The position numbers and the translations under genes are program-made. A model generated the notes under the pieces. It ran no database searches, was not told the origin of the DNA, and saw nothing but the letters and a program-made list of their open reading frames with translations. This document shows, piece after piece, positions 3,339 through 59,319 of a DNA stretch of 64,000 nucleotides (its first letter is position 1; each line of letters starts with the position of its first letter). Location of the stretch: NCBI GenBank assembly GCA_041650935.1, contig JBAZKH010000001.1, positions 139,945-203,944 on the forward strand. Reading direction: 5' to 3'. This stretch comes from Candidatus Omnitrophota bacterium (GTDB lineage: Bacteria > Omnitrophota > Gorgyraeia > 2-01-FULL-45-10).

Positions 3339-3387
3339 TACCAAAGCGACCGAGGACATGACCCATAGATTTATAGAGTAAAATTAT

Positions 3388-5220: not shown

Positions 5221-5231
5221 TATCAGACACC

Positions 5232-10897: not shown

Positions 10898-10937
10898 GAG
10901 TTATCCACAATGTAGGGGACGTTTAAACGTCCCCTAC
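10898..10937 (+). repeat. ~40-bp element GAGTTATCCACAATGTAG + GGGGACGTTTAAACGTCCCC hairpin (copy 2)
   Basis: Shares the 5' flank, the GACGTTTAAACGTC core and the 3' CTAC with the copy at 5181..5220. Confidence 0.6.
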
Positions 10938-10958
10938 TGCAGAATGATGGGCTGAAAC

Positions 10959-11954: not shown

Positions 11955-12066
11955 AATTTTTCGTCTGTGGAGAAATCCCCTTTCGGGATTGTGCCTCGCG
12001 GGCACGAATCCCTGCGGGGATTTCGACGGCGGGACTAGAGTGGCAGACGAAAAATTTCCATACTAA
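11955..12066 (+). repeat. ~110-bp GC-rich nested palindrome between asd and truA
   Basis: Outer stem TTTTCGTCTG/CAGACGAAAA encloses a long imperfect hairpin GAAATCCCCTTTCGGGATTGTGCCTCG|CGGGCACGAATCCCTGCGGGGATTTC. Confidence 0.5.
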
Positions 12067-12068
12067 TC

Positions 12069-13416: not shown

Positions 13417-13418
13417 GG

Positions 13419-13436
13419 TTTTCCACCCCGGGGTGT
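13419..13436 (+). terminator. GC palindrome TTTCCACCCCGGGGTG (second copy)
   Basis: CACCCCGGGGTG is a perfect palindrome, followed by an A/T-rich tract. Confidence 0.5.
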
Positions 13437-13470
13437 AAAATTAAGATTTAAAAAAGTTAGACATTTTCAC

Positions 13471-19600: not shown

Positions 19601-22600
19601 GTCCATTGTCGAAATAGCCGGTCAGAATGATAACCTGGCCGCCCGCGTCACAGCGTTGGCATACTTAAGAGATGTTCTGCCGTCAAGGACCGAGATCGAG
19701 TCCGAAAAGCTGTGGCAGTCCATCTGTGCAATAGCGACTCAGAAAAAAGATCTCACAGCCCGCGTCATGGCGTTGATATATATGAGGGATGAGTATGATC
19801 CCGACATTGACGCTGATAAACGCCAGGAAAAGCTCTGGAACTCTATCGGTAAAATAGCACGCCAGAAAAAAGACCTCACAGCCCGCGTCACAGCGCTTAT
19901 GTTTTTAAAAAGTCCAGACAGATGGGTACAACATGAATTCTCGCGGCTAGCACCGGATGGTGAACTTTTATATTTTTATCGTGATAGTGATAGGCGAAGA
20001 GCTAGCCCTATCCGTGAGATAGCTAACCAGGATAAAGACCTCACAGCCCGCGTTGCGGCGTTGATATGTCTGAGGAATGGAGGAGATTATAACTGTGAAG
20101 AACTCTGGCAGTCTATCCGTAGAATAGCCCACCAAAAGAGAGACCCTGTAGCCCGTGTCACAGCGTTGATATATATGAGAGATAATACACCGGAAATTGC
20201 CGGGGATGAACGCGAGCGCTTATTGCAAAGAATTCAAGGTAAAGAACCGGCCTCTGTATCCGTGCCTCGATTCGATTGGGTGGATACGTTAAGTCGCGCC
20301 GAAAGGAAGGAGATAGTAGACAATCTTGCACTTACAGATGAGCAAATAGCCGATAGAACCATCTTAAGGGCGGCTATTGCAGCGGTGACTGCGAATACAG
20401 AACAAGATAAAAAACAGGCAATGATTGTGCTCGCATGCCGTTTCCAGGAATTAGATGGCGATGGCTCGTACGCCGCCGCAGAACGCGCAGAACAGTCAAT
20501 AAAAGATATTCGCCGCGAAATAGATAACAAGGGAGAGATCGACCGGCGCACGGAATCCGGCAAGGGACAGGCAGCGGAAACACCTGCCCGGCCGCGCGAT
20601 GGAAATGACCGTTCTTGGAATGGCCATATAACGGAAGGCGATATAAGGATGCACGCGGATGTGGGTAATTCGGAAGATATTAACTGGCTTGTTGATGCCA
20701 GCGCTAACCAGCCCGATATGGTGGAGAAAATACTCACTGAGCCTAAATACGCCGCTGTACGCAAGCAGTATAAAGTGGCGCTAGCGAAATTACCATCAAT
20801 GCAATGGGGGATAAAAGATTTTACTAGTATGGCGCAATTCCTAGGAAAACATGCGGCTTCTTTTAAGAAACAGGTTGGTGGGTTCCATTTTTACATAGGA
20901 GTACCGGAACACTCGGATCAGCGTTCACTTAAAACATCTTTCATTTCTTATAACGCCAATTTTGGGAAAGGAATGAGCTATACTTTCCGAAAAGAACCGT
21001 CCGGAGAGATTTCGTTGATAGTCAATCGTGCTATATGTGATGGCATGGGGGAATCACATATTTTTACAATAAATGAAAACATGATACGAGAGGAATACGG
21101 ATCCAGGGCAGAGGTTATAGAAAATGGCTTGATAAAGGGATTTGTGTCCAAAGATGGGTGTTTGTATGTTCTTGTTAGTCATGCTGGGAAGGAATTTGCA
21201 AAAAATTATATACCTGAATTTGACCCTGAATATAAGTTTGTGTCTTTTGTCGAATCAATGCCCGGTACAGTAGTGACGACGCCGGTACTGGAGACGGATG
21301 TAGCGAAAACTGCGCAAGCTGCGACAGGTGTGTCAGCGGATGCGCAAGAAGTAACGCAACCAGAAGCAGAAGATCTCGAGAACCTCCATTATTATTGGCT
21401 TGCATTGGGAGCCGCCCAGCGAGAAGCAATAATTGAAAATATCGCTGAAGTTACTCTCAGAAGAGTGTCCTATGCCGATACTGATTTGTTGTACAGTGTA
21501 GCGGCAAGGGTAGGAGCCAAGATGCCGAACGAAATTAATCAGGCTATGGCAATGATTGTCAGATGTTTTAAATCGAGAGGAAAAGATGACACGGCCGCTC
21601 AAAAAACAGCGGAAGAGCTGGTGGAACTTGTCAACACGGCCTTAAATGCCATTAAGACACTCCCCGAACAAAGAATAAGGTTTCAATCTGCATTAGATGG
21701 AGCACGTAATAGGCTAACTGCAGAACAAATGGGTGTGAGATTCCCTGTTGCGCAACCCGCGGTAAATGAAAAACCCCAGGCCGCGGCAATATCAGATACT
21801 GCGACAGAATTGGTCGAGTTGATGGCAAAGAGAGATGCTTTGCCGGAGAGCGCCGACCTGCTTGTGGTCTTTGGCAGTCCGGATGCCGAAATGGTCGCGG
21901 CGGAAGCGGCTAAAATGTATCGTGAGCGTAAGATATCGCGTATATTGGTTTCCGGGAAATACGGAAAACATTGCACCCCGTGTGCGGATAACGGTGACTT
22001 TGGACGTGATAAGGATGGTAACATCGTCAGGGCGGAGGCATTAATAATGAGAGATGCTATTATTGCCGCCGGAGTGCCGGAGTCATCGATCCTGGTTGAA
22101 AAAGAATCCCAGGGGATGACCGATAACGGAGTATTTTCCGTGAATAAATTAATAGAGGCGAATATTGTGCCCAAAACGGTCATTTTTATGCATGCGCCCC
22201 TTATGCAGTTAAGAGGCTCGTTGGCTCTTCGCAATGCCTTGGCGCAAAATAAGATAGAAGCCGCGGTATACGATTATGCGGCGTCTATTCCCGTAAACCC
22301 TTCCGAAAAATTAAGCGCTATTATTTGGCAGGCAGGCCGGCTGGATATTGAAATCGAGCCGATCGTCGGCAAAGAGAGATATGCTCAAATAATACTTCTG
22401 CTGGAGAGCCTGAGGATGCCTGAAAAGAGCGCGGGGGAGCAGTCCGCGACTGGAATGAATATGCCGGTTGCAAACGAAGTCAATGTGGCCGAAGCGAAAC
22501 CGGCCCAGCCTGCGGTGCGCGCGGGCGGCAGGGCAAATAATTTAATCGAAATATCCGAATTAAATCAACATATCGTAGAATTGGAAGCGATGGCTTCCAG

Positions 22601-23828
22601 AGGGAAGTATGTTGCAGATGAACTTGCGGTTGCTCATGAACGGCTTTTAGCGCTTGCGAAAGCTGCAGCGGTCAATGCGCAAGAAGTAACACAACCCGCC
22701 GCGCAGGAAGCCGAAAACGCATCGGTTGCGCAGCCCACTTTAGAAGAGCTCACGGTGGAGATGTCCAGTGGAGCCACTGCGGTTGACTGGATGCCGGTGT
22801 GGGAAAACGTACTGCAAATGGTTTTAAGCAAAAAAGTGTACGGTTCTGCCGTAACAATAAGAGAATATATGGAGTGTAATGATGTTGATCGCGAAACGAC
22901 TGTTACTGCACTTTCTGAACTTGTTAGGCAAGGTTATTTAGTGCGATCTAATATTATAAGGTGGAGTTACGATCTTACGCCAAAAGCTGCCGTTGAAATA
23001 TTATGTGCACAAGCAATAGCTGAACAAGGGCTGGATACGGACGAATTCTGGAGCGCCCGCGCCGCGGCTATAAAAGATACGAAGAATAGAGCCATCATTA
23101 AGGCGATATCGGATTTCACCGCTCGGCAAGGTCCGAATGCGGGCCCGGGCGCTATGATCCCGCTTTCGAAGACGACGACGCTCAGCATCTGGCAGATAGT
23201 AAACCTGGCCCATCAAAACAGGATAGAGATCTTCCGGCCCCAGGAGGACGGCCGTTCCGCCGGCATGAAGAAGGCCCTTGATACTATCGAAAAGCGGAGA
23301 GGGGATATCATAAGCGATAGATTCTACACCGGGAATAATCTCGAGGCGATGCTTAGGGACCCGGCCAAAAAGGGCACATTAAGGATAGTACTCACCACAA
23401 ACGCGGAATCGAAGAGACTTGTGGAAGCCCTGTCCAGGAAAGATGTTACGCTATTTAAGTCTACGCGGCTATTGAATCTGACGCTTCCCAGGGAGTACAG
23501 CGCATATCTTCCGAACTCTAAGGAGAGGACGTACTACCAGGCGAAGATGATATTCGAAGCCATACTGGCGCGGTTATATGAAAAGGGCAAGACGCCTATG
23601 GTCGAGCTTATCATGAGGAGCGTCTTCGAAGGCCGCATAGATGGCGGTATGGATAAATTCCTGGAGACATTGGCCGAGGCCGAAGACGAAAAGGATAATC
23701 CCGACCCGGAGAAGATAAAGATAAGGATCGAAAACTGTCTTAACATAATCGTGAGGCTTTCCGAGGAAGTGGCCAGGTCGATCGAGCATTTGAAGTTGAT
23801 CATGAAGGAGTTCTGGACAGCGGCGTAA
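13671..23828 (+). CDS. giant secreted/membrane multidomain protein (3385 aa) of unknown function
   Basis: Single uninterrupted ORF with SD AGGAGG 8 nt upstream. N-terminal signal peptide. Two paralogous modules with hydrophobic helices, ~7 HEAT-like repeats, a DUF218/YdcF-like domain, winged-helix-like segments. No recognisable enzymatic core over most of its length. Confidence 0.85.
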   Translation: MKNKILIKSLSIVVLCAFLFNDLAYGLSPIVVSGPDGGGSGTRDDMYALGKKLFAAKWLGPGSIGAMDMSRVGIPKFRGTAPKIKNVSNFRRVTYREDMEFPAGWSNNKVNRELLKSRDLISALRCFRKNEAAISGEFLSIEEGYFEPERKGELPIARTEILDNGMLKLIVHTEFVQMWDDLLARDIWFDHTFPDGKTRTVSAAWALFYRLAKHEMADRVKVGAYHKGGGHISSFSFGSIPEIFSNEFSANEIGGRYNIINDAIWLWYLGSYSYTNKTRYNNRTAKARYNWIFNGKKAKELELDQEFPNLRGGENKANREFAIKLALNINKTCFEKGRIVWETVVDQKFIDAYERRRQRIYSVLPATGRDDDRKPRAHDRWARGEAGPAKKDLAAASVDDITALLRKYGLKPATISEREWIASVASMLCVEAGFSKIAPLVNKLCLVQDLGRYIEDTEPELYGRVKAAFKKHGLETTADALIDAAKEAGFTDMMDFARNVIGGEIEWNPKTEEAARGLADHENRTLELLEDEGYSIGQFEVNLIPAHHDFSKLSTETTPVKRAITAAIRLALILNYSNRNKGDSMEAVESFMVSRINTEGMAGYGIDAMQNYRRLLAAEGGQLLARIREARAAYSADSVIREGDAEFLASLQGRLMSGEPPVAGAGSDGSVIEGKLTIGDLNRAVIREINSDSGITVSDAEGYIELWGNFIAEHAAENTTVNISDIENILASKGEETIGWRESIRALITPLSVGIGIVWGYTGFWYIAAMHYVAGAVFFGDFIYNNFIKGKDEKEGFAALAGYLRKAKLGVPGQAVTFFAIGTPSVTPKATLANLTIDALTGEITKALKHDFSLTIWDRFRYGELWGKVIEKYGENAAISISNIEKGLINKRSRLIGWCGAGIAAGCVFGAAGVLCGIAVPWATALFDLITVYYSIEGIFGLVGTRQQDLAALAGYLKKIEYELRSQEAGEAVETPAQPQRDDKHSPGEPPTAGSIDGVKPSDLAIHPMLNALINKYLQGGNGNACVSEDIKTPFFDKLYLLGDANDFTFRDIFDKLVNREMREQHMNRPDAEAALVIQLVNHYRSYAHINRHMVEAFKNQLAQQVEHFGVYHNGAIYVMRGLIGSKDEIIQHAVLECRIHRECAESLDYNGQGAESAYRSWRDPIDSREMDVNVAIPEHGINIRGRMTYKRFVDLAYDAAEKAYPLSSLIPKNKRHKLGDLSYALPGEPPVAGVGSDGAGAESKLTIDDLTRAVIRSINDDPSLTESVIEGYVDLWNDFIQERPEDNATVNISDIKKALAEKNEQLTPLAGVVIEATTAAIFFAVGVIWSITGPWYVAAIYYAISTGFLADSINNYLSHHKQKDFMALAGYLKKIEYELRSQEAGEAVETPARMPEETDRRIKRGKSPDWALTVIALSGLEEITIKDYLDQFDWAIEEYPEFDLDVRAEKKPESTARRDLYLNPRSLEIMGIIEPASRLPGSREYRWRLTEKGRRLAELTVRMRKKIEEAWQIVPSGIRCDGTTSEELIIVEDDKKVLESELKSLLRLNGRDLAQKLAAARLEDRCEIDDILRDLSGNARVSEKLRTCIEDAKAAAAEFNKVTSMLEPRKAGVKRREPPTMQEKLEPEEFFAQNRTKNAEPIKPMSSLPYSHDDNIRFMSQTGKERQLAPQNSAEPARISVGGSEKTEAISVPSLADIRNISSAFAARLPSNFPDSFRTRRDLRLWMLNDIQSLRAQFLENMARAGGYKKTDVMYPQYSGWAIECDNKRSEAERVYGILFGEGEAKPARPRDNARFDYKSPGSPAHYLLYIGLYPPIPTGWKPRTLTSAHFSQMGKISDRTLRRDRKFLEDIGYLDIEKPTWLTEKGYAEACDFAGRLKTLAAQVKPGYSGDSRLLVQDLIKEANPQILSEIKKMNDKLRAEAKSVRLSKADQRKRLAAILSAAKIKDLTARVTALIYLRDNLPRETKREDEKLKRSIVEIAGQNDNLAARVTALAYLRDVLPSRTEIESEKLWQSICAIATQKKDLTARVMALIYMRDEYDPDIDADKRQEKLWNSIGKIARQKKDLTARVTALMFLKSPDRWVQHEFSRLAPDGELLYFYRDSDRRRASPIREIANQDKDLTARVAALICLRNGGDYNCEELWQSIRRIAHQKRDPVARVTALIYMRDNTPEIAGDERERLLQRIQGKEPASVSVPRFDWVDTLSRAERKEIVDNLALTDEQIADRTILRAAIAAVTANTEQDKKQAMIVLACRFQELDGDGSYAAAERAEQSIKDIRREIDNKGEIDRRTESGKGQAAETPARPRDGNDRSWNGHITEGDIRMHADVGNSEDINWLVDASANQPDMVEKILTEPKYAAVRKQYKVALAKLPSMQWGIKDFTSMAQFLGKHAASFKKQVGGFHFYIGVPEHSDQRSLKTSFISYNANFGKGMSYTFRKEPSGEISLIVNRAICDGMGESHIFTINENMIREEYGSRAEVIENGLIKGFVSKDGCLYVLVSHAGKEFAKNYIPEFDPEYKFVSFVESMPGTVVTTPVLETDVAKTAQAATGVSADAQEVTQPEAEDLENLHYYWLALGAAQREAIIENIAEVTLRRVSYADTDLLYSVAARVGAKMPNEINQAMAMIVRCFKSRGKDDTAAQKTAEELVELVNTALNAIKTLPEQRIRFQSALDGARNRLTAEQMGVRFPVAQPAVNEKPQAAAISDTATELVELMAKRDALPESADLLVVFGSPDAEMVAAEAAKMYRERKISRILVSGKYGKHCTPCADNGDFGRDKDGNIVRAEALIMRDAIIAAGVPESSILVEKESQGMTDNGVFSVNKLIEANIVPKTVIFMHAPLMQLRGSLALRNALAQNKIEAAVYDYAASIPVNPSEKLSAIIWQAGRLDIEIEPIVGKERYAQIILLLESLRMPEKSAGEQSATGMNMPVANEVNVAEAKPAQPAVRAGGRANNLIEISELNQHIVELEAMASRGKYVADELAVAHERLLALAKAAAVNAQEVTQPAAQEAENASVAQPTLEELTVEMSSGATAVDWMPVWENVLQMVLSKKVYGSAVTIREYMECNDVDRETTVTALSELVRQGYLVRSNIIRWSYDLTPKAAVEILCAQAIAEQGLDTDEFWSARAAAIKDTKNRAIIKAISDFTARQGPNAGPGAMIPLSKTTTLSIWQIVNLAHQNRIEIFRPQEDGRSAGMKKALDTIEKRRGDIISDRFYTGNNLEAMLRDPAKKGTLRIVLTTNAESKRLVEALSRKDVTLFKSTRLLNLTLPREYSAYLPNSKERTYYQAKMIFEAILARLYEKGKTPMVELIMRSVFEGRIDGGMDKFLETLAEAEDEKDNPDPEKIKIRIENCLNIIVRLSEEVARSIEHLKLIMKEFWTAA
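19480..20200 (+). other. array of ~7 degenerate 36-45-aa alpha-helical repeats, HEAT-like/PBS-lyase-like, inside the giant ORF
   Basis: Recurrent ...EKLWQSI..IA.QKKDLTARVTAL[IM]YLRD... in the translation. Confidence 0.55.
21860..22330 (+). other. DUF218 (YdcF/SanA/ElyC-like) domain embedded in the giant ORF
   Basis: LLVVFGSPDAEM...AAKMYRERKISRILVSGKYG...AEALIMRDAIIAAGVPESSILVEKESQGMTDNGVFS...KTVIFMHAPLMQLRG follows the DUF218 spacing (VLG...SGG...EA..M..GVP...E..S.nT.eN...H..R). Confidence 0.55.
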
Positions 23829-24798: not shown

Positions 24799-24819
24799 AA
24801 ATAGTTTCTCGACGAGGTT

Positions 24820-24880
24820 TAAAAAACCTATCTGGTCAACTCCGACGACGATTTTAGTTGACACGATAGGTTTTTTATTT
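24820..24880 (+). terminator. Rho-independent-type terminator after rpsI
   Basis: AACCTATCTGGTCAAC...GTTGACACGATAGGTT stem followed by a T-run. Confidence 0.6.
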
Positions 24881-24886
24881 TAATAT
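24858..24886 (+). promoter_or_regulatory. second TTGACA-N17-TAATAT promoter, overlapping the terminator 3' arm, for the arg operon
   Basis: TTGACA at 24858-24863 and TAATAT at 24881-24886. SD GGAGG at 24904 and ATG at 24912 lie downstream. Confidence 0.55.
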
Positions 24887-25993: not shown

Positions 25994-27232
25994 ATGATAG
26001 CAGTTAAAGGTGGTGTAGCGACAGCTATAGGATTCGTCGCTAACGGCGTCAAGGCCGGCATAAAGAAGTCGGGCAATAGGGACCTTGCGCTTCTCTATTC
26101 AGAGGTCCCGGCCGTCGCGGCCGCGGCCTTTACGACGAATGTCTTCGAAGCCTCGCCGGTGAAGGTGAGCAAGCTTCATATAAAGAATAAGACGCACCAG
26201 GCCGTGATCGTAAATAGCGGCAATGCAAATTGCGCGAACGGTAAGACCGGATATAAGAGCGCGCTTGCGATGGCCGAATATGCCGCTAAGGGCTTATGGT
26301 GCGATAGGCGGGAAGTGCTCGTGGCCTCGACCGGTATAATAGGGTGCGCTTTACCGATAAAGAAGATAGCGGATAAGGTGCCGGGCCTTGTCTGCGGCCT
26401 GTCGAAAGACGGCGGCAGGGGATTTGCCGAGACGATAATGACGACCGATACGGTGAGAAAAGAGTTCGCGATAAAACTTAAACTCGGCTCGTCTACGGTT
26501 ACGATCGGCGGCGCCTGCAAGGGCGTCGGGATGATATATCCCGCGATGAAGACTGCCTCCGGCAGCCGTGGCAAGGGACACGCGACCCTCCTGGCCTTTA
26601 TCACGACGGATGCGGCCATATCCAAGAGGATGCTTGAGGAGGCTCTGGGCGAGGCGATAGAGGGTTCTTTCAATATGGTCTCCGTCGACGGCGATATGAG
26701 CACCAACGATACGTGTTTTGTCCTCGCCAACGGCATGGCTGGGAACGCCAGGATAACGAAGCGGGATGCGAACTACAAAAAATTCGCCGCGGGCATGAAG
26801 TACCTGAGCTGTGAACTGGCAAAGATGCTTGCCGCCGACGGCGAAGGCGCGACAAAATTTGTGGAGATCGAGGTCAGGGGCGCGCGGACGGACCGGGATG
26901 CCTCGACGGCGGCAAGGAAGATATCGGTCTCGAGCCTTTTAAAATGCGCGATATTCGGCGAGGATCCTAACTGGGGCAGGGCCGCGGCCGCCTGCGGTGC
27001 GGCCGGGGTGGATTTCGATCCGGCGCGGATGGATATATATCTCGGCACGATGAGGGCCCTTTCGAGCGGCGCGATCGATAGAAATTACGATAAAGAGCGT
27101 GCCCGCAAGTTCTTTAAGACAAAGAGCGTGAAGATAGCGGTCGACTTAAAGAGCGGAAGAGGCAAGGCAACGGCATGGACGTGTGACTTCTCGAAGGAAT
27201 ACGTTGCGATAAATTCGGAGTATAGTACTTAG
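25994..27232 (+). CDS. argJ: bifunctional glutamate N-acetyltransferase/ornithine acetyltransferase
   Basis: ArgJ family with the autoprocessing site ...ATLLAFITTD.... Confidence 0.9.
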   Translation: MIAVKGGVATAIGFVANGVKAGIKKSGNRDLALLYSEVPAVAAAAFTTNVFEASPVKVSKLHIKNKTHQAVIVNSGNANCANGKTGYKSALAMAEYAAKGLWCDRREVLVASTGIIGCALPIKKIADKVPGLVCGLSKDGGRGFAETIMTTDTVRKEFAIKLKLGSSTVTIGGACKGVGMIYPAMKTASGSRGKGHATLLAFITTDAAISKRMLEEALGEAIEGSFNMVSVDGDMSTNDTCFVLANGMAGNARITKRDANYKKFAAGMKYLSCELAKMLAADGEGATKFVEIEVRGARTDRDASTAARKISVSSLLKCAIFGEDPNWGRAAAACGAAGVDFDPARMDIYLGTMRALSSGAIDRNYDKERARKFFKTKSVKIAVDLKSGRGKATAWTCDFSKEYVAINSEYST

Positions 27233-27290
27233 TATAGTGAATAGTGGAGAGTGAATAGTAAAATCGAACCGCAGTTTTTTTATCCACTAA
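27226..27290 (+). repeat. 'GTGAATAG' heptamer-repeat element (copy G1) overlapping the argJ stop
   Basis: TAGTATAGTGAATAGTGGAGAGTGAATAGT ... GCAGTTTTTTTATCCACTAA. Confidence 0.6.
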
Positions 27291-27303: not shown

Positions 27304-28158
27304 ATGCGCGAAGCAATAAAGAAGAGTGAAGTCCTCATCGAAGCACTGCCGTATATACGCAAGTTTTATAAGAAGACGATCGTTATAAAATACGGCGGTT
27401 CCGCGGTCGAGGAGAAGGGCATAGAGCAGGGCATCCTCGAGGATATAATATTTATGAGCTATGCCGGTATGCGTCCGGTAATTGTCCACGGCGGCGGACC
27501 ATATATCTCGCGGATGATGAAGAAAGCCGGTATCGAGCCGAAATTTATACAGGGCCTGCGAGTTACCGACGGCCAGTCGATCCATATAATAGACAGGGCG
27601 CTCCATGCTATAAACAGTAAGATTGTCCGCACGTTAAGAACTCTGGGGGCGCGGGCGTTCGGGATGAGCGGGAAAGAGAACGGTATGATCAAGGTCAAGC
27701 GGATGAAGCGCGAATACGATCTAGGCTTCGTGGGCGAGGTTACGTCCGTCGACACTACGGTGGTGAAACAGCTCATCGAGGATAACATCATCACTGTGAT
27801 ATATCCGCTCGGTATAGGCAGAGACGGCCATACATATAACGTAAATGCCGACGATGTAGCCAGCTCGCTTGCAAAAGCGCTCAAAGCGGAGAAGTTTGTT
27901 TTATTGACGAACGTGAACGGTATTATGAAAGATAAGGATGATCCTCGGACCCTGTATAATACGATAAAGGACTCCGAGGTCGAACGCCTTATAAAGCGGC
28001 GGGTCATAAATTCCGGGATGATACCAAAGGCGAGGGCCTGTATCAACGCGACGAAGGGCGGCGTTAAAAAGGCGCATATACTCAACGCCGGCATACCGCA
28101 CGCGTTATTATTGGAAATATTCACGGATAAAGGTATCGGGACAGAGATTGTGAAATAG
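27304..28158 (+). CDS. argB: acetylglutamate kinase
   Basis: AAK family: VIKYGGSAV and VIVHGGGP motifs. Confidence 0.9.
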   Translation: MREAIKKSEVLIEALPYIRKFYKKTIVIKYGGSAVEEKGIEQGILEDIIFMSYAGMRPVIVHGGGPYISRMMKKAGIEPKFIQGLRVTDGQSIHIIDRALHAINSKIVRTLRTLGARAFGMSGKENGMIKVKRMKREYDLGFVGEVTSVDTTVVKQLIEDNIITVIYPLGIGRDGHTYNVNADDVASSLAKALKAEKFVLLTNVNGIMKDKDDPRTLYNTIKDSEVERLIKRRVINSGMIPKARACINATKGGVKKAHILNAGIPHALLLEIFTDKGIGTEIVK

Positions 28159-28187
28159 TGGATAGTGAATAGCGGAGAGTGGATAGT
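28148..28187 (+). repeat. heptamer-repeat element (copy G2) TGAAATAGTGGATAGTGAATAGCGGAGAGTGGATAGT
   Basis: Tandem TGRATAG-like 7-mers. Contains the argB stop and the argD SD. Confidence 0.6.
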
Positions 28188-30422: not shown

Positions 30423-31613
30423 ATGAGTAAAAAAGTGGTGCTTGCCTATTCCGGCGGGCTCGATACATCGGTAATAATAAAGTGGCTCTCCAATAAAGGC
30501 TATGAAGTCATAGCTTACATGGCCGACGTCGGGCAGGGTTCGGACTTTGCGGTCTACAAGCGCCGCGCGCTGGCTACGGGTGCGGTAAAAGTCGTAGTCG
30601 ACGACCTGAAAGACGAATTCGTTAAGGATTTCGTCTTCAAGGCGCTTAAGGCGGACGCCGTTTATGAAAATAATTACCTGCTTGCCACGGCGTTGTCGCG
30701 TCCGGTGATAGCGAAGGGCCTTGTGCGCACAGCCCGGGAGGAAGGGGCTTGGTACGTGGCGCACGGCTGTACCGGAAAGGGCAATGACCAGGTGAGATTC
30801 GAAGTCACTGTAAATTCTCTAGACCCAAGCTTAAAAATACTGGCCCCGGTCAGGGAATGGGAACTTAAAACAAGATCAGAAGAGATAGAATATGCGAAGG
30901 ATAATCTTATCCCCATCGACACAACAAAGAAGAAGCCATACTCGATTGATGTTAATCTTTGGGGAATATCGATTGAAAGTGGGCGGCTGGAAGATCCTTA
31001 TTACGAGCCTGACGAAGATATATATCAACTTACGAAAGGAATAGATAAGGCAAGGCCGCGGCCTGTCTACGTGGAGATAGAATTCAAAAAAGGCGTGCCC
31101 TTTAAGCTCAACGGCAAGGCTATGGACGGAGTACGCCTGATAACCAGGCTCGGCAGGATAGCCGGCGATGCCGGCGTCGGCCGGAGCGATATGATAGAGA
31201 ACAGGCTCGTCGGCATAAAGTCGCGTGAAATATATGAGGCGCCGGCCGGCTGGGCGCTTCTTACGGCGCACAGGGCGCTTGAGTCGCTGGTCCTTGACCG
31301 GGAGACGCTCCACTTTAAAGAGATAGTGGCGCAGAAATACGCCGAGCTTACCTATTACGGGCTCTGGTATACGCCGCTTAAAGAGGCCCTGGATAAATTT
31401 GTCGACGCGACGCAGGGCTGTGTTAACGGTACCGTGCGGCTGAAGCTGCACAAGGGGAACTGTTCGATCGCCGGCAGGAAATCGCCGAATTCCCTCTATA
31501 AGAAAGAGCTGGCGACCTATGAAGAAGGCGATAAGTTCGACCAGTCTCTGGCGAAGGGGTTCATAGAGATCTGGGGTCTGCCGTATAGGGGATCATGCAA
31601 GAATGTCAAATGA
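30423..31613 (+). CDS. argG: argininosuccinate synthase
   Basis: VLAYSGGLDTS PP-loop motif. Confidence 0.95.
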   Translation: MSKKVVLAYSGGLDTSVIIKWLSNKGYEVIAYMADVGQGSDFAVYKRRALATGAVKVVVDDLKDEFVKDFVFKALKADAVYENNYLLATALSRPVIAKGLVRTAREEGAWYVAHGCTGKGNDQVRFEVTVNSLDPSLKILAPVREWELKTRSEEIEYAKDNLIPIDTTKKKPYSIDVNLWGISIESGRLEDPYYEPDEDIYQLTKGIDKARPRPVYVEIEFKKGVPFKLNGKAMDGVRLITRLGRIAGDAGVGRSDMIENRLVGIKSREIYEAPAGWALLTAHRALESLVLDRETLHFKEIVAQKYAELTYYGLWYTPLKEALDKFVDATQGCVNGTVRLKLHKGNCSIAGRKSPNSLYKKELATYEEGDKFDQSLAKGFIEIWGLPYRGSCKNVK

Positions 31614-31712
31614 CAAAATCCCAATAACAAATCAATCATTAAATAACCAATATCCAATTATTGGGATTTAACGATTGATTTGGTTTTTGTAATTGGGAAT
31701 TCGTAATTTCAG
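31602..31712 (+). repeat. AT-rich ~100-bp palindromic element, family A copy 1 (contains the argG stop)
   Basis: AATGTCAAATGACAAAATCCCAATAACAAATCAATCATTAAAT...ATTTAACGATTGATTTGG.... Inner hairpin AATCCCAATAA/TTATTGGGATT. Confidence 0.7.
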
Positions 31713-34358: not shown

Positions 34359-35180
34359 ATGGGAAAGATAAAGTTTACGAAAGCGGTGGCGACCGGGAAC
34401 GATTTTATCATTATCGATAATAGGACGGGCCGCTTAACGGAAAAGAATTTAGCCGCATTTACGCGAAAAGCCTGCGACCGCAAAAGAGGGATAGGCGCGG
34501 ACGGCGTTCTTTTCATCGAACGCTCGCGGCGGGCCGATTTCAGGATGCGTATCTTCAACTCTGACGGGAGCGAAGCCGGGATGTGCGGCAACGGCTCCAG
34601 GTGCGCGGCGTTATTTGCGGCGACGAGAAAGATCGCTAAGAGTAAGATGACTATAGAGACACTGGCGGGTCTCCTCAATGCGGAAGCGCGGCGTGATGTC
34701 ATCAAGGTAAGGTTGACCGATCCCAAGGATATAAGGTGGAACTTTTGCCTCATGATAAATAAGTGCCCTTATAAAGTCAGCTTCGCCGACACGGGGGTCC
34801 CGCACGTCATACATTTTACCGACGATTTAGAGGCTATCGACGTCAGGAATATCGGTTCCCACATACGCCATCACGGCGAGTTTTCTCCGGAAGGGACGAA
34901 TGCCGATTTTGTCAAGGTAGTAAATGCCCACACTATAAGGATCAGGACCTACGAGAGGGGCGTGGAAGACGAGACACTGGCCTGCGGCACCGGAGCGGTG
35001 GCTAGCGCTATAATCTCCGCGGAGACCGAGCGGATGAAATCCCCTATTGTTGTCGAAACGCTCGGCGGGGAGCGGGTGAATGTCTATTTCGAAATGAAGA
35101 ACGGAAATTTCAAGAACGTATACCTGGAAGGCAGGGCTGAGTTGGTTTATGAGGGAGATTACTTAATAAATAGTAAATAG
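34359..35180 (+). CDS. dapF: diaminopimelate epimerase
   Basis: KFTKAVATGNDFIIID N-terminus. Two catalytic Cys (GNGSRC, CGTGAVA). Confidence 0.9.
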   Translation: MGKIKFTKAVATGNDFIIIDNRTGRLTEKNLAAFTRKACDRKRGIGADGVLFIERSRRADFRMRIFNSDGSEAGMCGNGSRCAALFAATRKIAKSKMTIETLAGLLNAEARRDVIKVRLTDPKDIRWNFCLMINKCPYKVSFADTGVPHVIHFTDDLEAIDVRNIGSHIRHHGEFSPEGTNADFVKVVNAHTIRIRTYERGVEDETLACGTGAVASAIISAETERMKSPIVVETLGGERVNVYFEMKNGNFKNVYLEGRAELVYEGDYLINSK

Positions 35181-35200
35181 TGGATAGTGGATAGAAAGTC
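35168..35200 (+). repeat. heptamer-repeat element (copy G4) AAATAGTAAATAGTGGATAGTGGATAGAAAG
   Basis: Contains the dapF stop codon. Confidence 0.55.
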
Positions 35201-36794: not shown

Positions 36795-36980
36795 AATTTT
36801 TCTCGGTAACGGCAGAATGCGCTGTGCCGGGTGGTTCGTGAGGGACACGTAATTTTTGGCCATGCAAAAATTACGCTCGAAAAAAATTGCTCGGACGCTG
36901 CCTCGCAATTTTTACGCCCTCACTCACCACGTCGTCACATCGCATTCTTACAGTGATGAGCGAAAAATTTTATCGGGGGA
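36795..36980 (+). other. 186-nt highly structured intergenic region (multiple hairpins) between dapB and dapL
   Basis: Stems CGTAATTTTT/AAAAATTACG and AAAATTGC/GCAATTTT, plus outer complementarity AATTTTTCTCGG.../...GAGCGAAAAATTTT. Confidence 0.4.
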
Positions 36981-38153
36981 ATGATGATGAAAATTGAGCG
37001 ATCGGAGAGGCTGAAAAACCTGCCGCCGTACCTGTTCGTCGAGATCGATAAGGCGAAAAAGCGCGCGCGCGACGAGGGGCGCGATATAATCGACCTGGGA
37101 ATAGGCGATCCCGACATCCCGACCCCGCGATTTATAATCGACGCGCTCAATAGAGCCGCGCGCGATCCGCGGAACCACCGGTATCCGCTCGACCAGGGAC
37201 TGCCGGAATTCAGGCAAGAGTGTGCCAGATGGCTTTCGGCGCGTTTCGGTGTATCGTTCGATCCCGAAAGCGAAATATACCCGCTGGTAGGTTCGAAAGA
37301 AGGGATCGCTCATATACCGCTTGCTTTCGTCAACCCCGGCGATATCGTACTCGTGCCGGATCCGGGTTATCCGCCGTACAGGTCGGGCGCATTGTTCGCC
37401 GGCGGCGAGGTTCTCAAAATGCCTCTTTTGGAAAAAAATCATTTCCTGCCGGACCTGAAGGCGATAAATCACGCATCGATGCATAAGATAAAGATGCTAT
37501 TCATAAATTATCCCAACAATCCGACCGCGGCGGTATGCGATAAGAGATTTCTGAAGGAGGCGGTCGATTTTGCCGCCAAACACAATATCATAGTCTGCCA
37601 CGATGCCTCGTACTCCGAAATAGCGTTCGGCGGGTTTAAGCCTCCGAGCATATTCGAAGTCGACGGCGCAAAGGATGTGGCGATAGAGTTTCATTCTCTT
37701 TCGAAGACATTCAATATGACCGGGTGGCGGCTGGGGTTTGCCATCGGTAACAAGGAGATCGTGGCGGGCCTTGCGAAGGTAAAGTCGAATATAGATTCCG
37801 GGTGTTTCTTCGCGATCCAGTGGGCGGGCGTCGCGGCGTTAAAGAATTACGACAGGCACATCAGGTCCGTGCTCAAGATATACGAAGAGCGCCGGAACGT
37901 CCTGGTCGACGGTCTCAATTCGCTGGGGTGGCACATCGCCAGACCGAAGGCCACATTCTATGTCTGGGCGCGCGTCCCGGCCAGGTACACTTCAGCCTCT
38001 TTCGCGAAAGAGCTGTTGGAGCGGTGCGATATCGTTGCGACGCCGGGTAACGGGTTTGGAGATAGCGGCGAAGGGTATGTCCGTTTTGCTCTCACCGTCG
38101 ATAAGAGACGGATCAAGGAAGCGGTGGACCGGATCAAGGAGAGAATGCAATGA
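36981..38153 (+). CDS. dapL: LL-diaminopimelate aminotransferase
   Basis: N-terminus ...RLKNLPPYLFVEIDKAKKRARDEGRDIIDLGIGDPD is diagnostic of DapL. Class I aminotransferase fold. Confidence 0.85.
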   Translation: MMMKIERSERLKNLPPYLFVEIDKAKKRARDEGRDIIDLGIGDPDIPTPRFIIDALNRAARDPRNHRYPLDQGLPEFRQECARWLSARFGVSFDPESEIYPLVGSKEGIAHIPLAFVNPGDIVLVPDPGYPPYRSGALFAGGEVLKMPLLEKNHFLPDLKAINHASMHKIKMLFINYPNNPTAAVCDKRFLKEAVDFAAKHNIIVCHDASYSEIAFGGFKPPSIFEVDGAKDVAIEFHSLSKTFNMTGWRLGFAIGNKEIVAGLAKVKSNIDSGCFFAIQWAGVAALKNYDRHIRSVLKIYEERRNVLVDGLNSLGWHIARPKATFYVWARVPARYTSASFAKELLERCDIVATPGNGFGDSGEGYVRFALTVDKRRIKEAVDRIKERMQ

Positions 38154-38266
38154 TTACAAATGACAAAATCCGAATGACAAATCAATCTTTAAATGACTAA
38201 CATAAACATTTGATATCGGTATTTAACGATTGATTTGGATTTTGAAATTTGAAATTGGGATTTTTG
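38148..38266 (+). repeat. AT-rich palindromic element, family A copy 2
   Basis: ...AAATGACAAAATCCGAATGACAAATCAATCTTTAAATGA...TATTTAACGATTGATTTGGATTTTGAAATTT... Confidence 0.7.
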
Positions 38267-41420: not shown

Positions 41421-41521
41421 TGGATAATAAATTCGAAATTCTAAATCCGAAATACGAAACAAATTATAATTTTCCAAATTACGATTTCGTATTTGTTTCG
41501 AATTTCGATATTCGGATTTAG
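41421..41521 (+). repeat. AT-rich palindromic element (variant family B)
   Basis: CTAAATCCGAAATACGAAACAAA ... TTTGTTTCGAATTTCGATATTCGGATTTAG inverted repeat. The 77-aa track ORF over it is probably spurious. Confidence 0.6.
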
Positions 41522-41530
41522 TGATTTAGA

Positions 41531-45421: not shown

Positions 45422-47743
45422 ATGATATTTAGAGCGGCGGTGCTGATAATGCTGATGCCCATCTCCGTCTTTGCGGCTCAGACTATGGAGGAAGGCGATT
45501 TCCTGGTCGCCAGGAAGGCTTTCAAGGACGGCCTCTACGACCTGGCCGGAGAGAGGCTCGAATCGATATTGCATAATTATCCCAACACGCCGCGCATATA
45601 TGAAGCGCATTTACTTCTCGGGAAGTCGTATCTGCGCCAGAACAACTTTTCGCGGGCGTCCTACGAATTCGAAGTTGTTATCAACGCGCCTGCCGGCAGC
45701 GATTCGCAGGACGCGGCTCTCTACTGGCTCGGCGAAATCTGCCTGAAGAACGGTGATTATAAGAGGGCGCTCGAACTCTACCAGCGCATCATGGATGAAT
45801 TCACGTCGTCTTTTTACATGAGCCATGCCCTCTACTCGAAAGGCTGGTGTTATTACAAGCTGGGACTCCTCGACGACGCCGTAACCTGTTTTAAAGAGGC
45901 CGTAGCGAAGTATCCACTCGAGGAAGCGGCGCCCGAGGCGCAGTTCCGGATAGGAGAATGCAAATATCTCGTGGCGGATTATACCGGCGCCGAAACTGAG
46001 CTTAAAAAGTTTATAGAGGAATTTCCGGTCTCCGAGAAGACGGCGGCGGCGTACTACCTGATGGGCGAGGTGAATTTTTTCCAGGCCAAATATAAAGACG
46101 CGGTTACTTATTTCCAGCGTGCCCTGGCAATTTCTCCGGAAGCCGCATGGTCATCTTTTGCCGCGTACCGCATGGCCGAGTCATTTTTCGGCGCGGGCGA
46201 TTACGCGGCAAGCATCAAAGAGTACAGGAGATGCCTGGCAAAGCGTAGTAACGGTCTTCTCTCAGGCGCGTCTTTAACCGGACTTGGCCGGGCCTGCGAG
46301 CGGACGGGTTCTACGGCTGAAGCCGTCAGGGCGTATGATGAAGTTATAGCGATGAGGTCGAAGAACGAAGCGGCGGCAGAGGCTTATTATAGAAAGGCGG
46401 CTATTCTATCGGCCGCGCGGAAATATGACGATGCCGAAAGGCTATGCAGGGACGGTATAGAAAAATTTCCTGGAGCCAAATATGCCGACGAACTTCATTA
46501 TGAGCTTGGCCGCATATATTCGCTGACCGGCAGGCGCGATGACGCGATACGGGAATTCCGGTGGGTCCAGGATAATTCGGGTGATCCGGCCCTTGCCGCA
46601 AACGCGATTGCCGGGATAGGAGAGATATATTACACCGCCAAAAAATTTAAGAGCGCGATGGAAAGTTATGACGCTATTTTGAGCAAGTATCCCGACAGCT
46701 CCGTTGCCGGCCGTGCCCAGGTTCAGGTTGGCAATGTATTTTTCGCGACGGATAATTTCGACCAGGCGGTCCTGGCATATCAGAGCGCGGTTACCAACTT
46801 TCCGGATACGGCGCTGCGCGCAGACGTTACGTTTTTACTGGGCGCGGCAAGCTTCAGGAAGGGTGACTTCAGGAGCGCTGCCGACTACTTGAAAAATTTC
46901 CTGGAATCGCCTGCCGGAGGCGAAACGGAGGAGCTTGCTAAATTGTACCTTGCAGATTCATTGTATTACACCGGTGATTATGCGGCGGCCATCCCTATTT
47001 ATAAGGCTATAAACAACGGCGCATTGAAGGCCATGGCGGATTATCAGGCCGGCTGGTGTTACTATAATACGGGCAGGGAGGCCGAAGCCGTCGAAGAATT
47101 TTCGCGATTTTCCAAAAATTATGCGTCCTCGCCCCTGGCCGCGGATGCGAGGTTCTGGCTGGGTGAATATTACAGCTCAAAGGGAAAATATGACAAGGCC
47201 AGGGAATCCTATTATTCGATTCCGATAGATTTTCCGTCGAGCGACCTTGCCGGCAGGGCCCTTTACCAGGCGGCCCTGACACTGCAGGACGAGGGAAAAT
47301 CCGAAGAGGCTGCGGGCAAGTTCGCCGAGCTGGCAGATAAATTCCCGGGATCCGACTTTGCTAGGAGCGGTTATAGACGGATGGCAAAATTCAGGCAGGA
47401 CAGGAAAGATTTCGACGGCGCGGTAGAGTGCCTTAAAAAGGCGCTCGGCGCCGGGAATAACGAGGCGAATGCGCAGGTTCAGTACGAGATATCGGAAATT
47501 TTAGAGGCGAAAGGAGACCTGCTTAAGGCGGCAGAAGAGTACCTCAAGGTTCCGCAGCTTTATTCCAACGGGGCTTTCTGGTGCGTCAGGGCACAATTTA
47601 AGGCCGCGCAGATATTCGAGCGAAACGGCCGTCCGGAAGAGGCGCGGCGGCTGTATGAAAAACTTGCGCGGATGGATGTCGAAGAGTCCGCTTTCGCGCA
47701 TGACCGCCTCGAATGGTTGAAGCGGCAGAGGCGGAAGCAGTAA
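45422..47743 (+). CDS. large periplasmic TPR-repeat protein (Tol-Pal associated, YbgF/CpoB-like repeats)
   Basis: Signal peptide plus many TPR-type repeats (...A.YWLGE.Y...G.Y..A...Y...). Confidence 0.75.
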   Translation: MIFRAAVLIMLMPISVFAAQTMEEGDFLVARKAFKDGLYDLAGERLESILHNYPNTPRIYEAHLLLGKSYLRQNNFSRASYEFEVVINAPAGSDSQDAALYWLGEICLKNGDYKRALELYQRIMDEFTSSFYMSHALYSKGWCYYKLGLLDDAVTCFKEAVAKYPLEEAAPEAQFRIGECKYLVADYTGAETELKKFIEEFPVSEKTAAAYYLMGEVNFFQAKYKDAVTYFQRALAISPEAAWSSFAAYRMAESFFGAGDYAASIKEYRRCLAKRSNGLLSGASLTGLGRACERTGSTAEAVRAYDEVIAMRSKNEAAAEAYYRKAAILSAARKYDDAERLCRDGIEKFPGAKYADELHYELGRIYSLTGRRDDAIREFRWVQDNSGDPALAANAIAGIGEIYYTAKKFKSAMESYDAILSKYPDSSVAGRAQVQVGNVFFATDNFDQAVLAYQSAVTNFPDTALRADVTFLLGAASFRKGDFRSAADYLKNFLESPAGGETEELAKLYLADSLYYTGDYAAAIPIYKAINNGALKAMADYQAGWCYYNTGREAEAVEEFSRFSKNYASSPLAADARFWLGEYYSSKGKYDKARESYYSIPIDFPSSDLAGRALYQAALTLQDEGKSEEAAGKFAELADKFPGSDFARSGYRRMAKFRQDRKDFDGAVECLKKALGAGNNEANAQVQYEISEILEAKGDLLKAAEEYLKVPQLYSNGAFWCVRAQFKAAQIFERNGRPEEARRLYEKLARMDVEESAFAHDRLEWLKRQRRKQ

Positions 47744-47848
47744 TGACGAATGTCAAATTTCAAAATCCAAATCAATCATTTAAAACCAAATATTTTAATG
47801 TTGGTCATTTAAAGATTGATTTGTCATTTGAAATTTAATAGTAACGCG
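47741..47848 (+). repeat. AT-rich palindromic element, family A copy 3
   Basis: TAATGACGAATGTCAAATTTCAAAATCCAAATCAATCATTTAAAA...TCATTTAAAGATTGATTTGTCATTTGAAATTT. Confidence 0.7.
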
Positions 47849-49316: not shown

Positions 49317-49571
49317 TTGACTATTGATATAATTATGATAAAATTAGATATAGGAACATTAATATTCTTCTATACATTATTTTCTGCTATACTTCTTTTG
49401 GTAATATGGACGTTATTTGCATATAAAAGGCCGAAAGGCCCGATAGCTAGAGAGATAGACTATACCTGGAAATGCTCGGTCTGTTTCCATTCTTATATCG
49501 ATTCGAAGCATGACGAAATATCTGTTTGTCCTTTATGCGGTAGCTACAACAAGAAGTCTGAAATAAGGTAA
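49317..49571 (+). CDS. small membrane protein with C-terminal CxxC...CxxC zinc ribbon
   Basis: 84 aa. TM LIFFYTLFSAILLLVIWTLF, then CSVC...CPLC. Confidence 0.45.
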   Translation: MTIDIIMIKLDIGTLIFFYTLFSAILLLVIWTLFAYKRPKGPIAREIDYTWKCSVCFHSYIDSKHDEISVCPLCGSYNKKSEIR

Positions 49572-49584
49572 TCCCTTGGCGCTG

Positions 49585-49815
49585 GAGTGAGAGTGTTGCA
49601 CCTCGGGATGATTTGCAAGAGTGAGATAAGGGCAAATCACGGTGCGATTTGTCTAAAGTTAGATACAAATTAAGGTAGCCCCTCGCTGCCGGAGTTAGAC
49701 AGTGGCAGCTCGGGACGATTTGTCAGACTTAGATACAATGAGGTAGCCCCTCGGTGCGGGACTTAGATTGTTGCACCTCGGGACGATTTGTCAGAGTTAG
49801 ATAATAACAAATCGG
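49585..49815 (+). repeat. ~68-bp tandem repeat, about 3.5 copies
   Basis: Repeated units ...TTAGATACAA(T)GAGGTAGCCCCTCG(G/C)TGC(G/C)GGA(C/G)TTAGA.(A)GT(T/G)GCACCTCGGGACGATTTGTCAGA(C/G).... Confidence 0.8.
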
Positions 49816-50319: not shown

Positions 50320-50670
50320 ATGCCGACCAGCAGAAGACCAAAATCGTACATACCCCGCGATTTTTGTATAATCCTAGTTACTTGCCAATCCAAAATAGAA
50401 GCCAGGAAGATCGCCTCGTCGCTTTTAAAGAAGCGGCTTGCCGCGTGCGTTAATATTATGCCGGGTGTCGATTCCAGGTTTTGGTGGAAAGGAAATATAG
50501 ATAGATCCGGTGAAGTGCTTCTTACGGCGAAGTCGGTGCGCCGTAATTTTATGCGTATAGAAAAAGCGGTGAGACGTCTCCATAGTTATGATGTGCCGGA
50601 GATAATCGCTATTCCATTAATTGCCGGCAGCGCGGATTATCTGAGATGGATAGCTTGTAATGTCGAATGA
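50320..50670 (+). CDS. cutA: divalent-cation tolerance protein CutA
   Basis: CutA1 fold signature ILVTCQSKIEARKIASSLLKKRLAACVNI...VPEIIAIPL. Confidence 0.8.
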   Translation: MPTSRRPKSYIPRDFCIILVTCQSKIEARKIASSLLKKRLAACVNIMPGVDSRFWWKGNIDRSGEVLLTAKSVRRNFMRIEKAVRRLHSYDVPEIIAIPLIAGSADYLRWIACNVE

Positions 50671-50765
50671 CAAAACCCAAATGACAAATAAATCTTTAAA
50701 TGACCAACATTAAAATATTTGGTTTTAAATGATTGGTTTGGATTTTGAAATTTGTCGTTTATGAT
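50655..50765 (+). repeat. AT-rich palindromic element, family A copy 4 (contains the cutA stop; abuts tRNA-Ala)
   Basis: AATGTCGAATGACAAAACCCAAATGACAAATAAATCTTTAAATGA...TTTAAATGATTGGTTTGGATTTTGAAATTTGTCG. Confidence 0.7.
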
Positions 50766-50772
50766 GTTCTTA

Positions 50773-50848
50773 GGGGCAGTAGCTCAGCTGGGAGAGCACC
50801 ACGTTCGCAACGTGGGGGTCGTGGGTTCGAATCCCATCTGCTCCACCA
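50773..50848 (+). tRNA. tRNA-Ala (anticodon CGC)
   Basis: Cloverleaf GGGGCAG/CTGCTCC acceptor stem with G3:U70. D-arm GCTC...GAGC. Anticodon stem CCACG/CGTGG with loop TTCGCAA. T-arm GTGGG TTCGAAT CCCAT. Encoded CCA. Confidence 0.9.
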
Positions 50849-56380: not shown

Positions 56381-56473
56381 AAACAGTGAATAGTGTATAG
56401 TGAATAGTGTATAGTTGAAGATATAACTATCCACTAGGTGCTATCCACTAAACACTAAATTTAAGGAGGTAGC
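56381..56473 (+). repeat. heptamer-repeat palindromic element (copy G5)
   Basis: CAGTGAATAGTGTATAGTGAATAGTGTATAG...CTATCCACTAGGTGCTATCCACTAAACACTA form imperfect inverted arms. Confidence 0.65.
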
Positions 56474-59312: not shown

Positions 59313-59319
59313 GTCTAAG

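Follow-up and report, generated by a model that had tools for sequence, protein, structure and literature searches.

A heptad-periodic, hairpin-forming repeat at operon junctions of an Omnitrophota genome, probably spread as miniature mobile DNA

In a 64,000-nucleotide stretch of the genome of a Candidatus Omnitrophota bacterium (contig JBAZKH010000001.1; the whole stretch is referred to hereafter as the window), four copies of a short repeat, which we call family A, lie directly behind argG, dapL, a gene for a TPR protein and cutA. The copies are homologous to one another, occur in both orientations, form hairpins built on a 7-nt period and carry stop codons in every reading frame; the corresponding sites of related genomes are empty, and two further copies are found in a second organism. 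[quoted passage not shown] The Omnitrophota are uncultivated, and the analysis was made on assembled genomes and metagenomes.

Results and Discussion

Four homologous copies in the window and two in another organism

The window has a G+C content of 50.5%, and its genes are arranged in tightly packed operons, nearly all of them on the plus strand. For comparison we used the syntenic Omnitrophota loci L003, L004 and L005 (87% ArgG identity) and L128 (from the same sample), to which the partial loci L124 and L126 were added; the closest other ArgG is 87% identical to that of the window. An independent ENA assembly (locus L001) contains the elements behind argG and dapL, and the one behind nadX that is described below, with 100% identity; they are therefore not assembly artefacts.

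A preliminary description of this DNA, made from its letters alone, had reported related AT-rich palindromic elements after argG, dapL, the TPR gene and cutA, and at those positions (Table 1) the relationship was borne out. In pairwise local alignments the four copies scored 88-144, compared to 22-26 for composition-matched shuffles (z=16-19), and their identities were 79-97% over 77-108 nt. These values show that the four copies are truly homologous and dispose of the objection, raised in the same description, that the similarity might be low-complexity AT-richness. Over 77 nt, the non-periodic loop included, the cutA copy and the reverse complement of the TPR copy share 97% identity (for 47749-47830 compared to 50678-50759 in reverse complement the value is about 95-97%). 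The core motif AAATCAATCWTTAAAT (up to three mismatches) occurs 8 times in the window against 1.36 expected, and all eight occurrences are inside the four family A elements, one per arm; AATGACAAAATCC occurs 11 times against 1.55 expected. The elements are 105-115 nt long (about 105) and only 25-28% G+C, compared to 50.5% for the window.

A profile built from the oriented copies was used for searches with nhmmer. As the profile gives 78-91 bits in one orientation and 23-45 bits in the other, family A is directional. The argG, dapL and cutA copies are oriented as their genes and the TPR copy is inverted; when the two copies from the second organism are included, four of six are oriented as the upstream gene and two are opposite. 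The profile detected no further family A copy in the 64-kb window. A two-arm pattern run over the genome collection, in which the species of the window is not represented, gave a single match, a chance palindrome in Paenibacillus, and a stricter pattern gave no match over viral contigs. A permissive pattern run over metagenomes matched at least 118 loci and, among the matches listed, real copies were present only in L045.

L045 is the metagenome contig Ga0105164_10000247 (44% G+C), which belongs to another organism. It holds two genuine family A copies, one in each orientation, and each is at most 10 nt from, or overlaps, the 3' end of an AcrB-like gene. One AcrB-like open reading frame (ORF) reads 26 codons into the element before it reaches a stop, and its Pfam domain ends at residue 1038 of 1071, which makes it a plainer example of an altered protein end than those of the window. 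Counting further copies had been proposed as a test of the mobile-repeat interpretation, and the test is answered in part: the family is dispersed, with two copies in a second organism. In one of the L045 copies a 21-nt G+C-rich hairpin, GCCTGCCTGCCGGTCAGGCAG, is nested in the right arm (L045 3531-3551). This arrangement recalls the very small nested mobile repeats that Elhai et al. reportedly found in cyanobacteria in 2008.

Anatomy, periodicity and folding

Each copy consists of a central stem formed by two inverted 16-mers, a variable loop and imperfectly pairing outer arms. From the start of one 16-mer, AAATCAATCWTTAAAT, to that of the other, its complement, the distance is 37-42 nt in each of the four copies; in the argG copy they read AAATCAATCATTAAAT and ATTTAACGATTGATTT. 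The terminal inverted repeats, which are made of heptamers, are also imperfect: when the right end AATGACGAATGTCAAATTTCAAAATCC is reverse-complemented, the left end AATGTCAAATGACAAAATCC agrees with it imperfectly.

Outer and inner arms are both composed of degenerate heptamers; those that flank the core follow AATGWCR AATGWCA AAWYYC..., with the general unit AAnnnCA. In the argG copy, for example, the left arm is AATGTCA AATGACA AAATCCC AATAACA AATCAAT. Invariant columns of the family A alignment are spaced every 7 nt, and autocorrelation at lags of 7 and 14 reaches z values of 3 to 6 in every copy, with the same signal in each arm alone. The periodicity is nevertheless degenerate, since the match at lag 7 is only 0.46-0.71, and Tandem Repeats Finder (TRF) run at a low threshold reported short period-7 stretches in just two elements, at 38233-38256 (dapL) and 41429-41459 (nadX).

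The strength of this signal in every copy and, as described below, in 12 of 28 spacers raises the question whether the elements could be heptanucleotide microsatellites that arose in place by slippage and fold-back template switching and resemble one another only through their AT-rich heptamers. The number of terminal heptamers varies among the copies, and heptamers are given as the commonest long simple repeats in many bacteria in the part of PMC4679880 that cites Mrazek 2007. Family A copies, however, align through the non-periodic loop and core with the identities and z scores given above, one of them is inverted, and others reside in a different organism, which makes such an origin very unlikely. 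Slippage and fold-back may explain how families of this kind originate and why their ends are fuzzy, but not the family A copies themselves.

The long imperfect hairpins of the preliminary description were recovered by RNA folding, with z scores of -3.0 to -4.7 for the four copies. The argG copy is predicted to fold with -31.4 kcal/mol (z -4.1). No consistent difference was seen between the sense and antisense folds of family A, and covariation was found in 1 of 26 pairs among six close copies that offer little power; the lack of strand asymmetry and the near-absence of covariation mean that nothing points to an RNA-specific constraint. Only tRNA-Ala passed the Rfam gathering threshold and no family A match was obtained. 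At E<=5 the elements gave far sub-threshold matches to miRNA precursors, that is, to generic long AU-rich hairpins.

Placement at stop codons and effect on the encoded proteins

Measured from the final base of the stop codon, the profile match sets in 10 nt earlier in argG and cutA, 3 nt earlier in the TPR gene and 2 nt later in dapL. It ends 5-28 nt before the next gene. With its limits at both gene ends, the element fills the spacer and leaves the downstream ribosome-binding site outside. The argG copy opens with 12 nt, AATGTCAAATGA, that comprise the stop (TGA, 31611-31613) and the three argG codons before it, and the cutA stop (TGA, 50668-50670) is within the first two heptamers, AATGTCG AATGACA. 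The TPR gene stops with TAA at 47741-47743 and exbB starts with ATG at 47869; dapL stops with TGA at 38151-38153 and the folK ATG is at 38270. Downstream of the cutA copy is tRNA-Ala(CGC), at 50773-50848. Every copy contains stop codons in all three sense frames, usually two of them within 24 nt, because the heptamers carry TGA or TAA and 7 equals 1 modulo 3.

In L124, cutA ends in exactly the sequence formed by the last 12 nt of the window argG coding sequence and the 8 nt behind them, so the repeated unit includes those codons and the stop. How much protein this represents can be read from the orthologues. Among them the ArgG tail after the conserved WGLPY[KR]G varies from 2 to 10 residues, but the window tail (GSCKNVK*) and that of the closest relative (GSHKNLR*) are equal in length. 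At the DNA level AAG AAT is common to both, and GTC AAA TGA stands in place of TTA CGC TAG of the relative. The DapL tail is likewise of equal length (ERMQ* compared to DRLT* or KRLK* in relatives). CutA ends in ACNVE* in the window, in ACNVK* in L124 and in KNTKA*, KNTR* or KNVKIR* in other orthologues; the N-[VT]-K tail is also present in the L126 orthologue, whose downstream spacer holds a different element. Its presence in CutA orthologues marks it as the ancestral tail type. All three proteins thus keep the ancestral tail length and differ in at most 2-3 residues.

From these alignments we conclude that the argG element supplies the stop and at most two to three codons. In cutA the element probably did the same, long ago, unless it originally captured that gene end. 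The earlier claim that the element carries the stop is therefore upheld in a narrow sense, for argG, cutA and the TPR gene, in which the match starts before the stop is complete, while the claim that insertion remodelled the 3' ends of the genes is not supported. An ATGCAA hexamer found upstream of both the argG and the dapL copy was considered as a part of the element and rejected, because in argG these bases encode the ancestral S-C/H-K residues of relatives.

The preliminary description had also suggested a combined terminator, i.e., that the elements are intrinsic (Rho-independent) terminators that supply a stop codon as well. In favour of this are the position of the hairpins directly 3' of genes and the T-rich sequence of their right arms. 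But none has a G+C-rich stem followed by a T-run, the stems being AU-rich and interrupted, and the 24 terminator-like sites between 31100 and 51000 all lie outside the elements (the total of such sites is not above the shuffled expectation). Four of the five sites, counting nadX, are inside order-conserved operons in which the genes of relatives are translationally coupled, and the relatives lack the elements altogether. Bona fide terminator-like hairpins of the window look different, for example that at 24799-24884, which is conserved in L003-L005. We consider a terminator function improbable and do not retain this part of the description. The hairpin just mentioned, AAAAAACCTATC...GATAGGTTTTTT with a T-run, follows rpsI in four genomes (window 24799-24884, L003 4637-4751, L004 4655-4787, L005 4544-4730) and looks like a genuine intrinsic terminator, unlike family A.

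Imperfect palindromes of 60-140 nt that abut the 3' ends of ORFs in co-oriented gene arrays are also typical of attC, the recombination sites at the ends of integron gene cassettes. No element contains an ordered RYYYAAC ... GTTRRRY pair, the flanking genes belong to housekeeping operons that are syntenic across species (arg, dap, nad, uvrA) and no integrase is nearby, so that an attC identity is extremely improbable.

Orthologous junctions in relatives

As shown in Table 1, the dapL/folK and TPR/exbB junctions are filled in the window and empty of family A in the syntenic relatives, and the nadX/tilS junction is empty in the same way of its separate element. The argG/argH spacer differs in that the relatives have other, unrelated hairpin elements in it. 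At cutA/tRNA-Ala a hairpin of some kind is present in three of the four species examined: L124 shares the first ~33 nt (GTAATGTCAAATGACAAAATCCAAAT...) followed by a different heptamer-hairpin interior, L126 has a different hairpin and L128 has none. Together with the two orientations, the inverted pair that is 97% identical and the copies in a second organism, the empty sites agree with the earlier view of family A as a dispersed MITE/REP-like family.

Other heptad-periodic hairpins

The fifth copy that had been proposed after nadX is an element at that place and of similar build, but it is not kin to the others by sequence. No significant similarity to family A was detected (alignment z<2; nhmmer E=0.02). 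Its left arm reads AATTCGA AATTCTA AATCCGA AATACGA and its right arm is the complement; the lag-7 autocorrelation has a z of 6.2, TRF reports period 7 with 4.4 copies, the fold z is -1.6 and the G+C content is within the 25-28% given above for the others. For this singleton an in-place microsatellite origin is possible.

Of the 28 window spacers of at least 40 nt, 12 hold hairpins whose strongest periodicity is at a lag of 7 (z>=2.8), a level reached by none of 136 coding control windows. A second family of heptamer hairpins, family B, with units of TAGTGRA that contain TAG and TGA, is found at six operon junctions (argJ/argB, argB/argD, dapF/dapA, fabG/acpP, fabF/acd and acd/etfB). Most family B junctions are empty in relatives. 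The hairpin between fabF and acd is present in the window, L124 and L128, with 80% identity between species, compared to 42-57% at the 4-fold degenerate sites of the same species. Across the three species 6 of its 23 pairs are kept by double substitutions (TAGTG/CACTA compared to TAGCG/CGCTA), and it folds better in the sense strand. Judged by this substitution pattern, the fabF/acd hairpin is under selection.

Period-7 arrays of 4-6 copies (by TRF, CGAACGA, CACGAA-type CAACGAA and ACGAAAG) were also seen within genes, at 43317-43355, 54599-54633 and 63021-63051, in uvrA, a radical-SAM gene and the last ORF. One would not expect them in coding sequence, in which a 7-nt repeat passes through each of the three frames in turn.

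It is conceivable, although on balance doubtful, that family A is one face of a lineage-specific Omnitrophota class of heptad-periodic hairpins, whose families would be unrelated in sequence, share one architecture and in some cases be domesticated as operon punctuation. The class would comprise A (AAnnnCA), B (TAGTGRA or TAGCGNA) and the nadX type (AAWWCGA), all with complementary arms that contain stop codons. If this is true, it would imply a dedicated machinery for the 7-nt register, such as a transposase, polymerase slippage or an RNA-binding protein.

Mobile repeat or operon punctuation

A different interpretation of family A is that it represents RNA structures selected by the host to punctuate operons (RNase III/E sites, 3'-end protectors or partial attenuators), in which case mobility would be incidental or absent. 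The copies are directly after stop codons within co-directional operons, co-transcribed by position, and the RNA folds are stable; the conservation and compensatory pairs of the family B hairpin at fabF/acd, and the recurrence of some hairpin at cutA/tRNA, are in line with such a role. However, family A is missing at the orthologous junctions of all relatives examined, where spacers are 1-22 nt, its orientation relative to transcription is not fixed and both strands fold equally well, covariation is limited to the single pair and, at the cutA site, the window and L124 have no conserved interior in common. Given these results we regard punctuation as a real but unlikely explanation of family A.

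If family A is mobile DNA, it would have been mobilised in trans, as a MITE or REPIN is, and its copies would survive only between a stop codon and the next ribosome-binding site in tight co-directional operons. Landing in so small a junction would be tolerated because the heptamers bring stops in every frame and the downstream ribosome-binding site stays outside. Where insertion or a later conversion clipped the last codons, the terminal heptamers would now provide the stop together with two to three codons; argG and probably cutA are such cases. Given that a target duplication cannot be seen and that copies differ at their termini by whole heptamers, we conjecture that single-strand spread (of the IS200/IS605 insertion sequence type or the REP-associated tyrosine transposase, RAYT, type) or recombination-based spread with end slippage would fit better than cut-and-paste. 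The act of transposition, the enzyme and the absence of a target duplication are what we infer here; the features of the copies themselves are observed directly.

Several points weigh against mobility. No direct repeat that could be a target-site duplication was found at the flanks of any copy or in the comparison of filled and empty dapL/folK and TPR/exbB sites, a comparison in which the element ends are fuzzy and the relatives too diverged (87% ArgG identity) for an exact reconstruction of the sequence before insertion. The number of outer heptamers differs among copies, so that the termini are fuzzy and no defined ends can be read. No transposase was found around the L045 copies or in the window, and none was among the Pfam annotations seen for the window and its neighbourhood. 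All four window copies are within 19 kb and could be explained by local duplication or gene conversion. The related terminal sequence at the cutA site of L124 indicates that the cutA copy is old or that the site is constrained. Finally, the selection acting on the fabF/acd hairpin means that hairpins of heptamer build can be functional.

Relation to known repeats

Heptanucleotide repeats in intergenic regions, the STRR (short tandemly repeated repetitive) sequences of cyanobacteria, were reportedly described by Mazel et al. in 1990. Repeats of the heptanucleotide TAACTGA are known from Beggiatoaceae, Cyanobacteria and Bacteroidetes (PMC4679880). Both resemble family A in their 7-nt unit, intergenic position at gene boundaries, stop codons within the units and patchy phylogenetic distribution. 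In them, however, a single exact heptamer is repeated directly in tandem, in most cases shortly upstream of a start codon, whereas family A has degenerate heptamers (46-71% match at lag 7) in two complementary arms around a unique core and is found just after stop codons.

Closer parallels are the stem-loop MITEs of bacteria, among them Correia/NEMIS, ERIC/IRU, RUP and YPAL/RU-2 (PMC2229807). Like family A, these are non-coding, of ~100-170 bp, with imperfect terminal inverted repeats and a transcript that forms a long stem-loop (PMC2229807). They too occupy intergenic operon spacers in both orientations, are co-transcribed with the upstream gene and leave sites that are filled in one relative and empty in another; some extend over ORF ends or are fused to them, and several have stops in all frames. 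Unlike them, family A has no recognisable TA termini or target-site duplication, its ends being fuzzy arrays of degenerate heptamers, and no cognate insertion sequence is known. An influence on mRNA processing or stability has been described for the transcribed Correia, ERIC and YPAL hairpins (PMC2229807), and by analogy the co-transcribed ~45-bp AU-rich RNA hairpin of family A may have a similar effect.

REPINs, the REP doublets mobilised by RAYT (PMC3116915, PMC3337134), share with family A two conserved inverted ~16-mers and a less conserved spacer, a hairpin in single-stranded DNA or mRNA and an extragenic position often just 3' of stop codons; REPINs leave no target duplication, and none is visible for family A. 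An associated RAYT (Y1 transposase) gene and tens to hundreds of copies per genome belong to the definition of REPINs. In family A the inner 16-mers start 37-42 nt apart; for the Pseudomonas GI REPIN the figure is 71 bp. The REP unit is an imperfect G+C-rich palindrome that bears a GTAG or CGTC tag (PMC3733652), in contrast to family A, which is 25-28% G+C and has neither tag: GTAG, CTAC and CGTC are absent from the elements and a single GACG is found at 47745. Family A thus works like a stem-loop MITE or a REPIN but, as no target-site duplication can be read and the REP tags are absent, cannot be filed as either. Within the known class of miniature hairpin-forming mobile repeats it is distinctive in its heptad-periodic arms and strict placement at stop codons. 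In the literature searched, no paper linked Omnitrophota to MITE or REP elements and none described the repeat content of Omnitrophota.

Other repeats and open reading frames in the window

A third type of repeat consists of composite hairpins of 45-250 nt bounded by AAAATTTTTCG ... CGAAAAATTTT, found at different junctions in several Omnitrophota species. It fills the argG/argH spacer in L004 and L005 and looks like a widespread MITE-like family. At 49562-49813, upstream of a small DUF2582-type ORF, there are three tandem copies of a ~68-107-nt unit (...GTAGCCCCTCGGTGCGGGA...GCACCTCGGGACGATTTG...); a single similar unit is upstream of fabG in L124 (7079-7200). This unit, which has no Rfam match, is a candidate structured RNA motif.

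Two shorter repeats were found right after stop codons. One, GAGTTATCCACAAWGTAG-[stem]-GACGTTTAAACGTC-[stem]-CTACT, is at 5181-5221 and 10898-10938 of the window and is also conserved after leuB in L003 (1252-1313); its stems differ between copies in a compensatory way (AGCTGACG...CGTCAGCT compared to GGGGACG...CGTCCCC). The other, TTTCCACCCCGGGGTGGAA, is a short palindrome rich in G+C that resembles REP units in size and composition and is found at 3320-3342 and 13417-13439 of the window and at about 17640-17665 of the relative L005.

Two ORFs were also noted. A giant ORF of 3,385 residues at 13671-23828 contains internal repeats of ~117 nt (39 residues) at 19507-20183, and very large ORFs are present at the syntenic position in L004 and L005. 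The ORF at 61524-64000, which is cut by the end of the window, falls in a family that comprises more than 100 hypothetical proteins (800-1400 residues). Every named member comes from Omnitrophota, most members are without a Pfam domain and there are several paralogues per metagenome-assembled genome.

Table 1. Positions of the repeats discussed and of the junctions compared (window coordinates unless a locus is named)
Feature	Position	Orientation	Location	Remarks
Family A copy 1	31602..31712	+ (consensus orientation)	between argG and argH	nhmmer 87 bits at 31603-31710
Family A copy 2	38152..38266	+ (consensus orientation)	fills dapL/folK spacer	nhmmer 84.9 bits
Family A copy 3	47738..47848	- (inverted)	between TPR gene and exbB	nhmmer 85.6 bits, minus strand
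Family A copy 4	50659..50768	+ (consensus orientation)	between cutA and tRNA-Ala(CGC)	nhmmer 91 bits
Inverted 16-mer pair	31629-31644, 31666-31681 (span 31629..31681)		argG copy	central stem
Inverted 16-mer pair	38179/38221		dapL copy	equivalent pair
Inverted 16-mer pair	47769/47807		TPR copy	equivalent pair
Inverted 16-mer pair	50686/50724		cutA copy	equivalent pair
dapL/folK spacer				116 nt in window; 1, 2 and 13 nt in three relatives; empty site, family A
TPR/exbB spacer				125 nt in window; 22 nt in L128; unrelated sequence of 69 nt in L126; empty site, family A
nadX/tilS spacer				113 nt in window; 5 nt in L004; overlapping genes in L128; empty site, separate nadX family
argG/argH spacer				111 nt in window; 89-253 nt of other, unrelated hairpin elements in relatives
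nadX element	41421..41527		fills nadX/tilS spacer	separate family; same architecture as family A
Family B	27226-27290, 28154-28187, 35162-35197, 56385-56457, 57986-58068, 59237-59314		six operon junctions	TAGTGRA units
Third repeat type, window	11955-12068, 36795-36980
Third repeat type, L003	2310-2352, 12783-13053
Third repeat type, L004	11192-11280
Third repeat type, L005	11183-11435, 12792-13057, 17245-17858

Implications for compact genomes

The window offers a view of miniature mobile DNA as it colonises a very compact genome, in which operon gaps are 1-20 nt and the incoming elements bring their own stop codons along. Roughly 40% of the longer spacers in the window would be such insertions, compared to almost none at the same junctions of close relatives. 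Elements of this kind would explain variable C-terminal tails and over-extended ORF calls, such as that of the AcrB-like gene of L045; they would also break translational coupling and could be used as strain-typing markers. The 7-nt register common to unrelated families, together with the one hairpin that is conserved, may provide a handle on how selfish hairpins become functional RNA structures.

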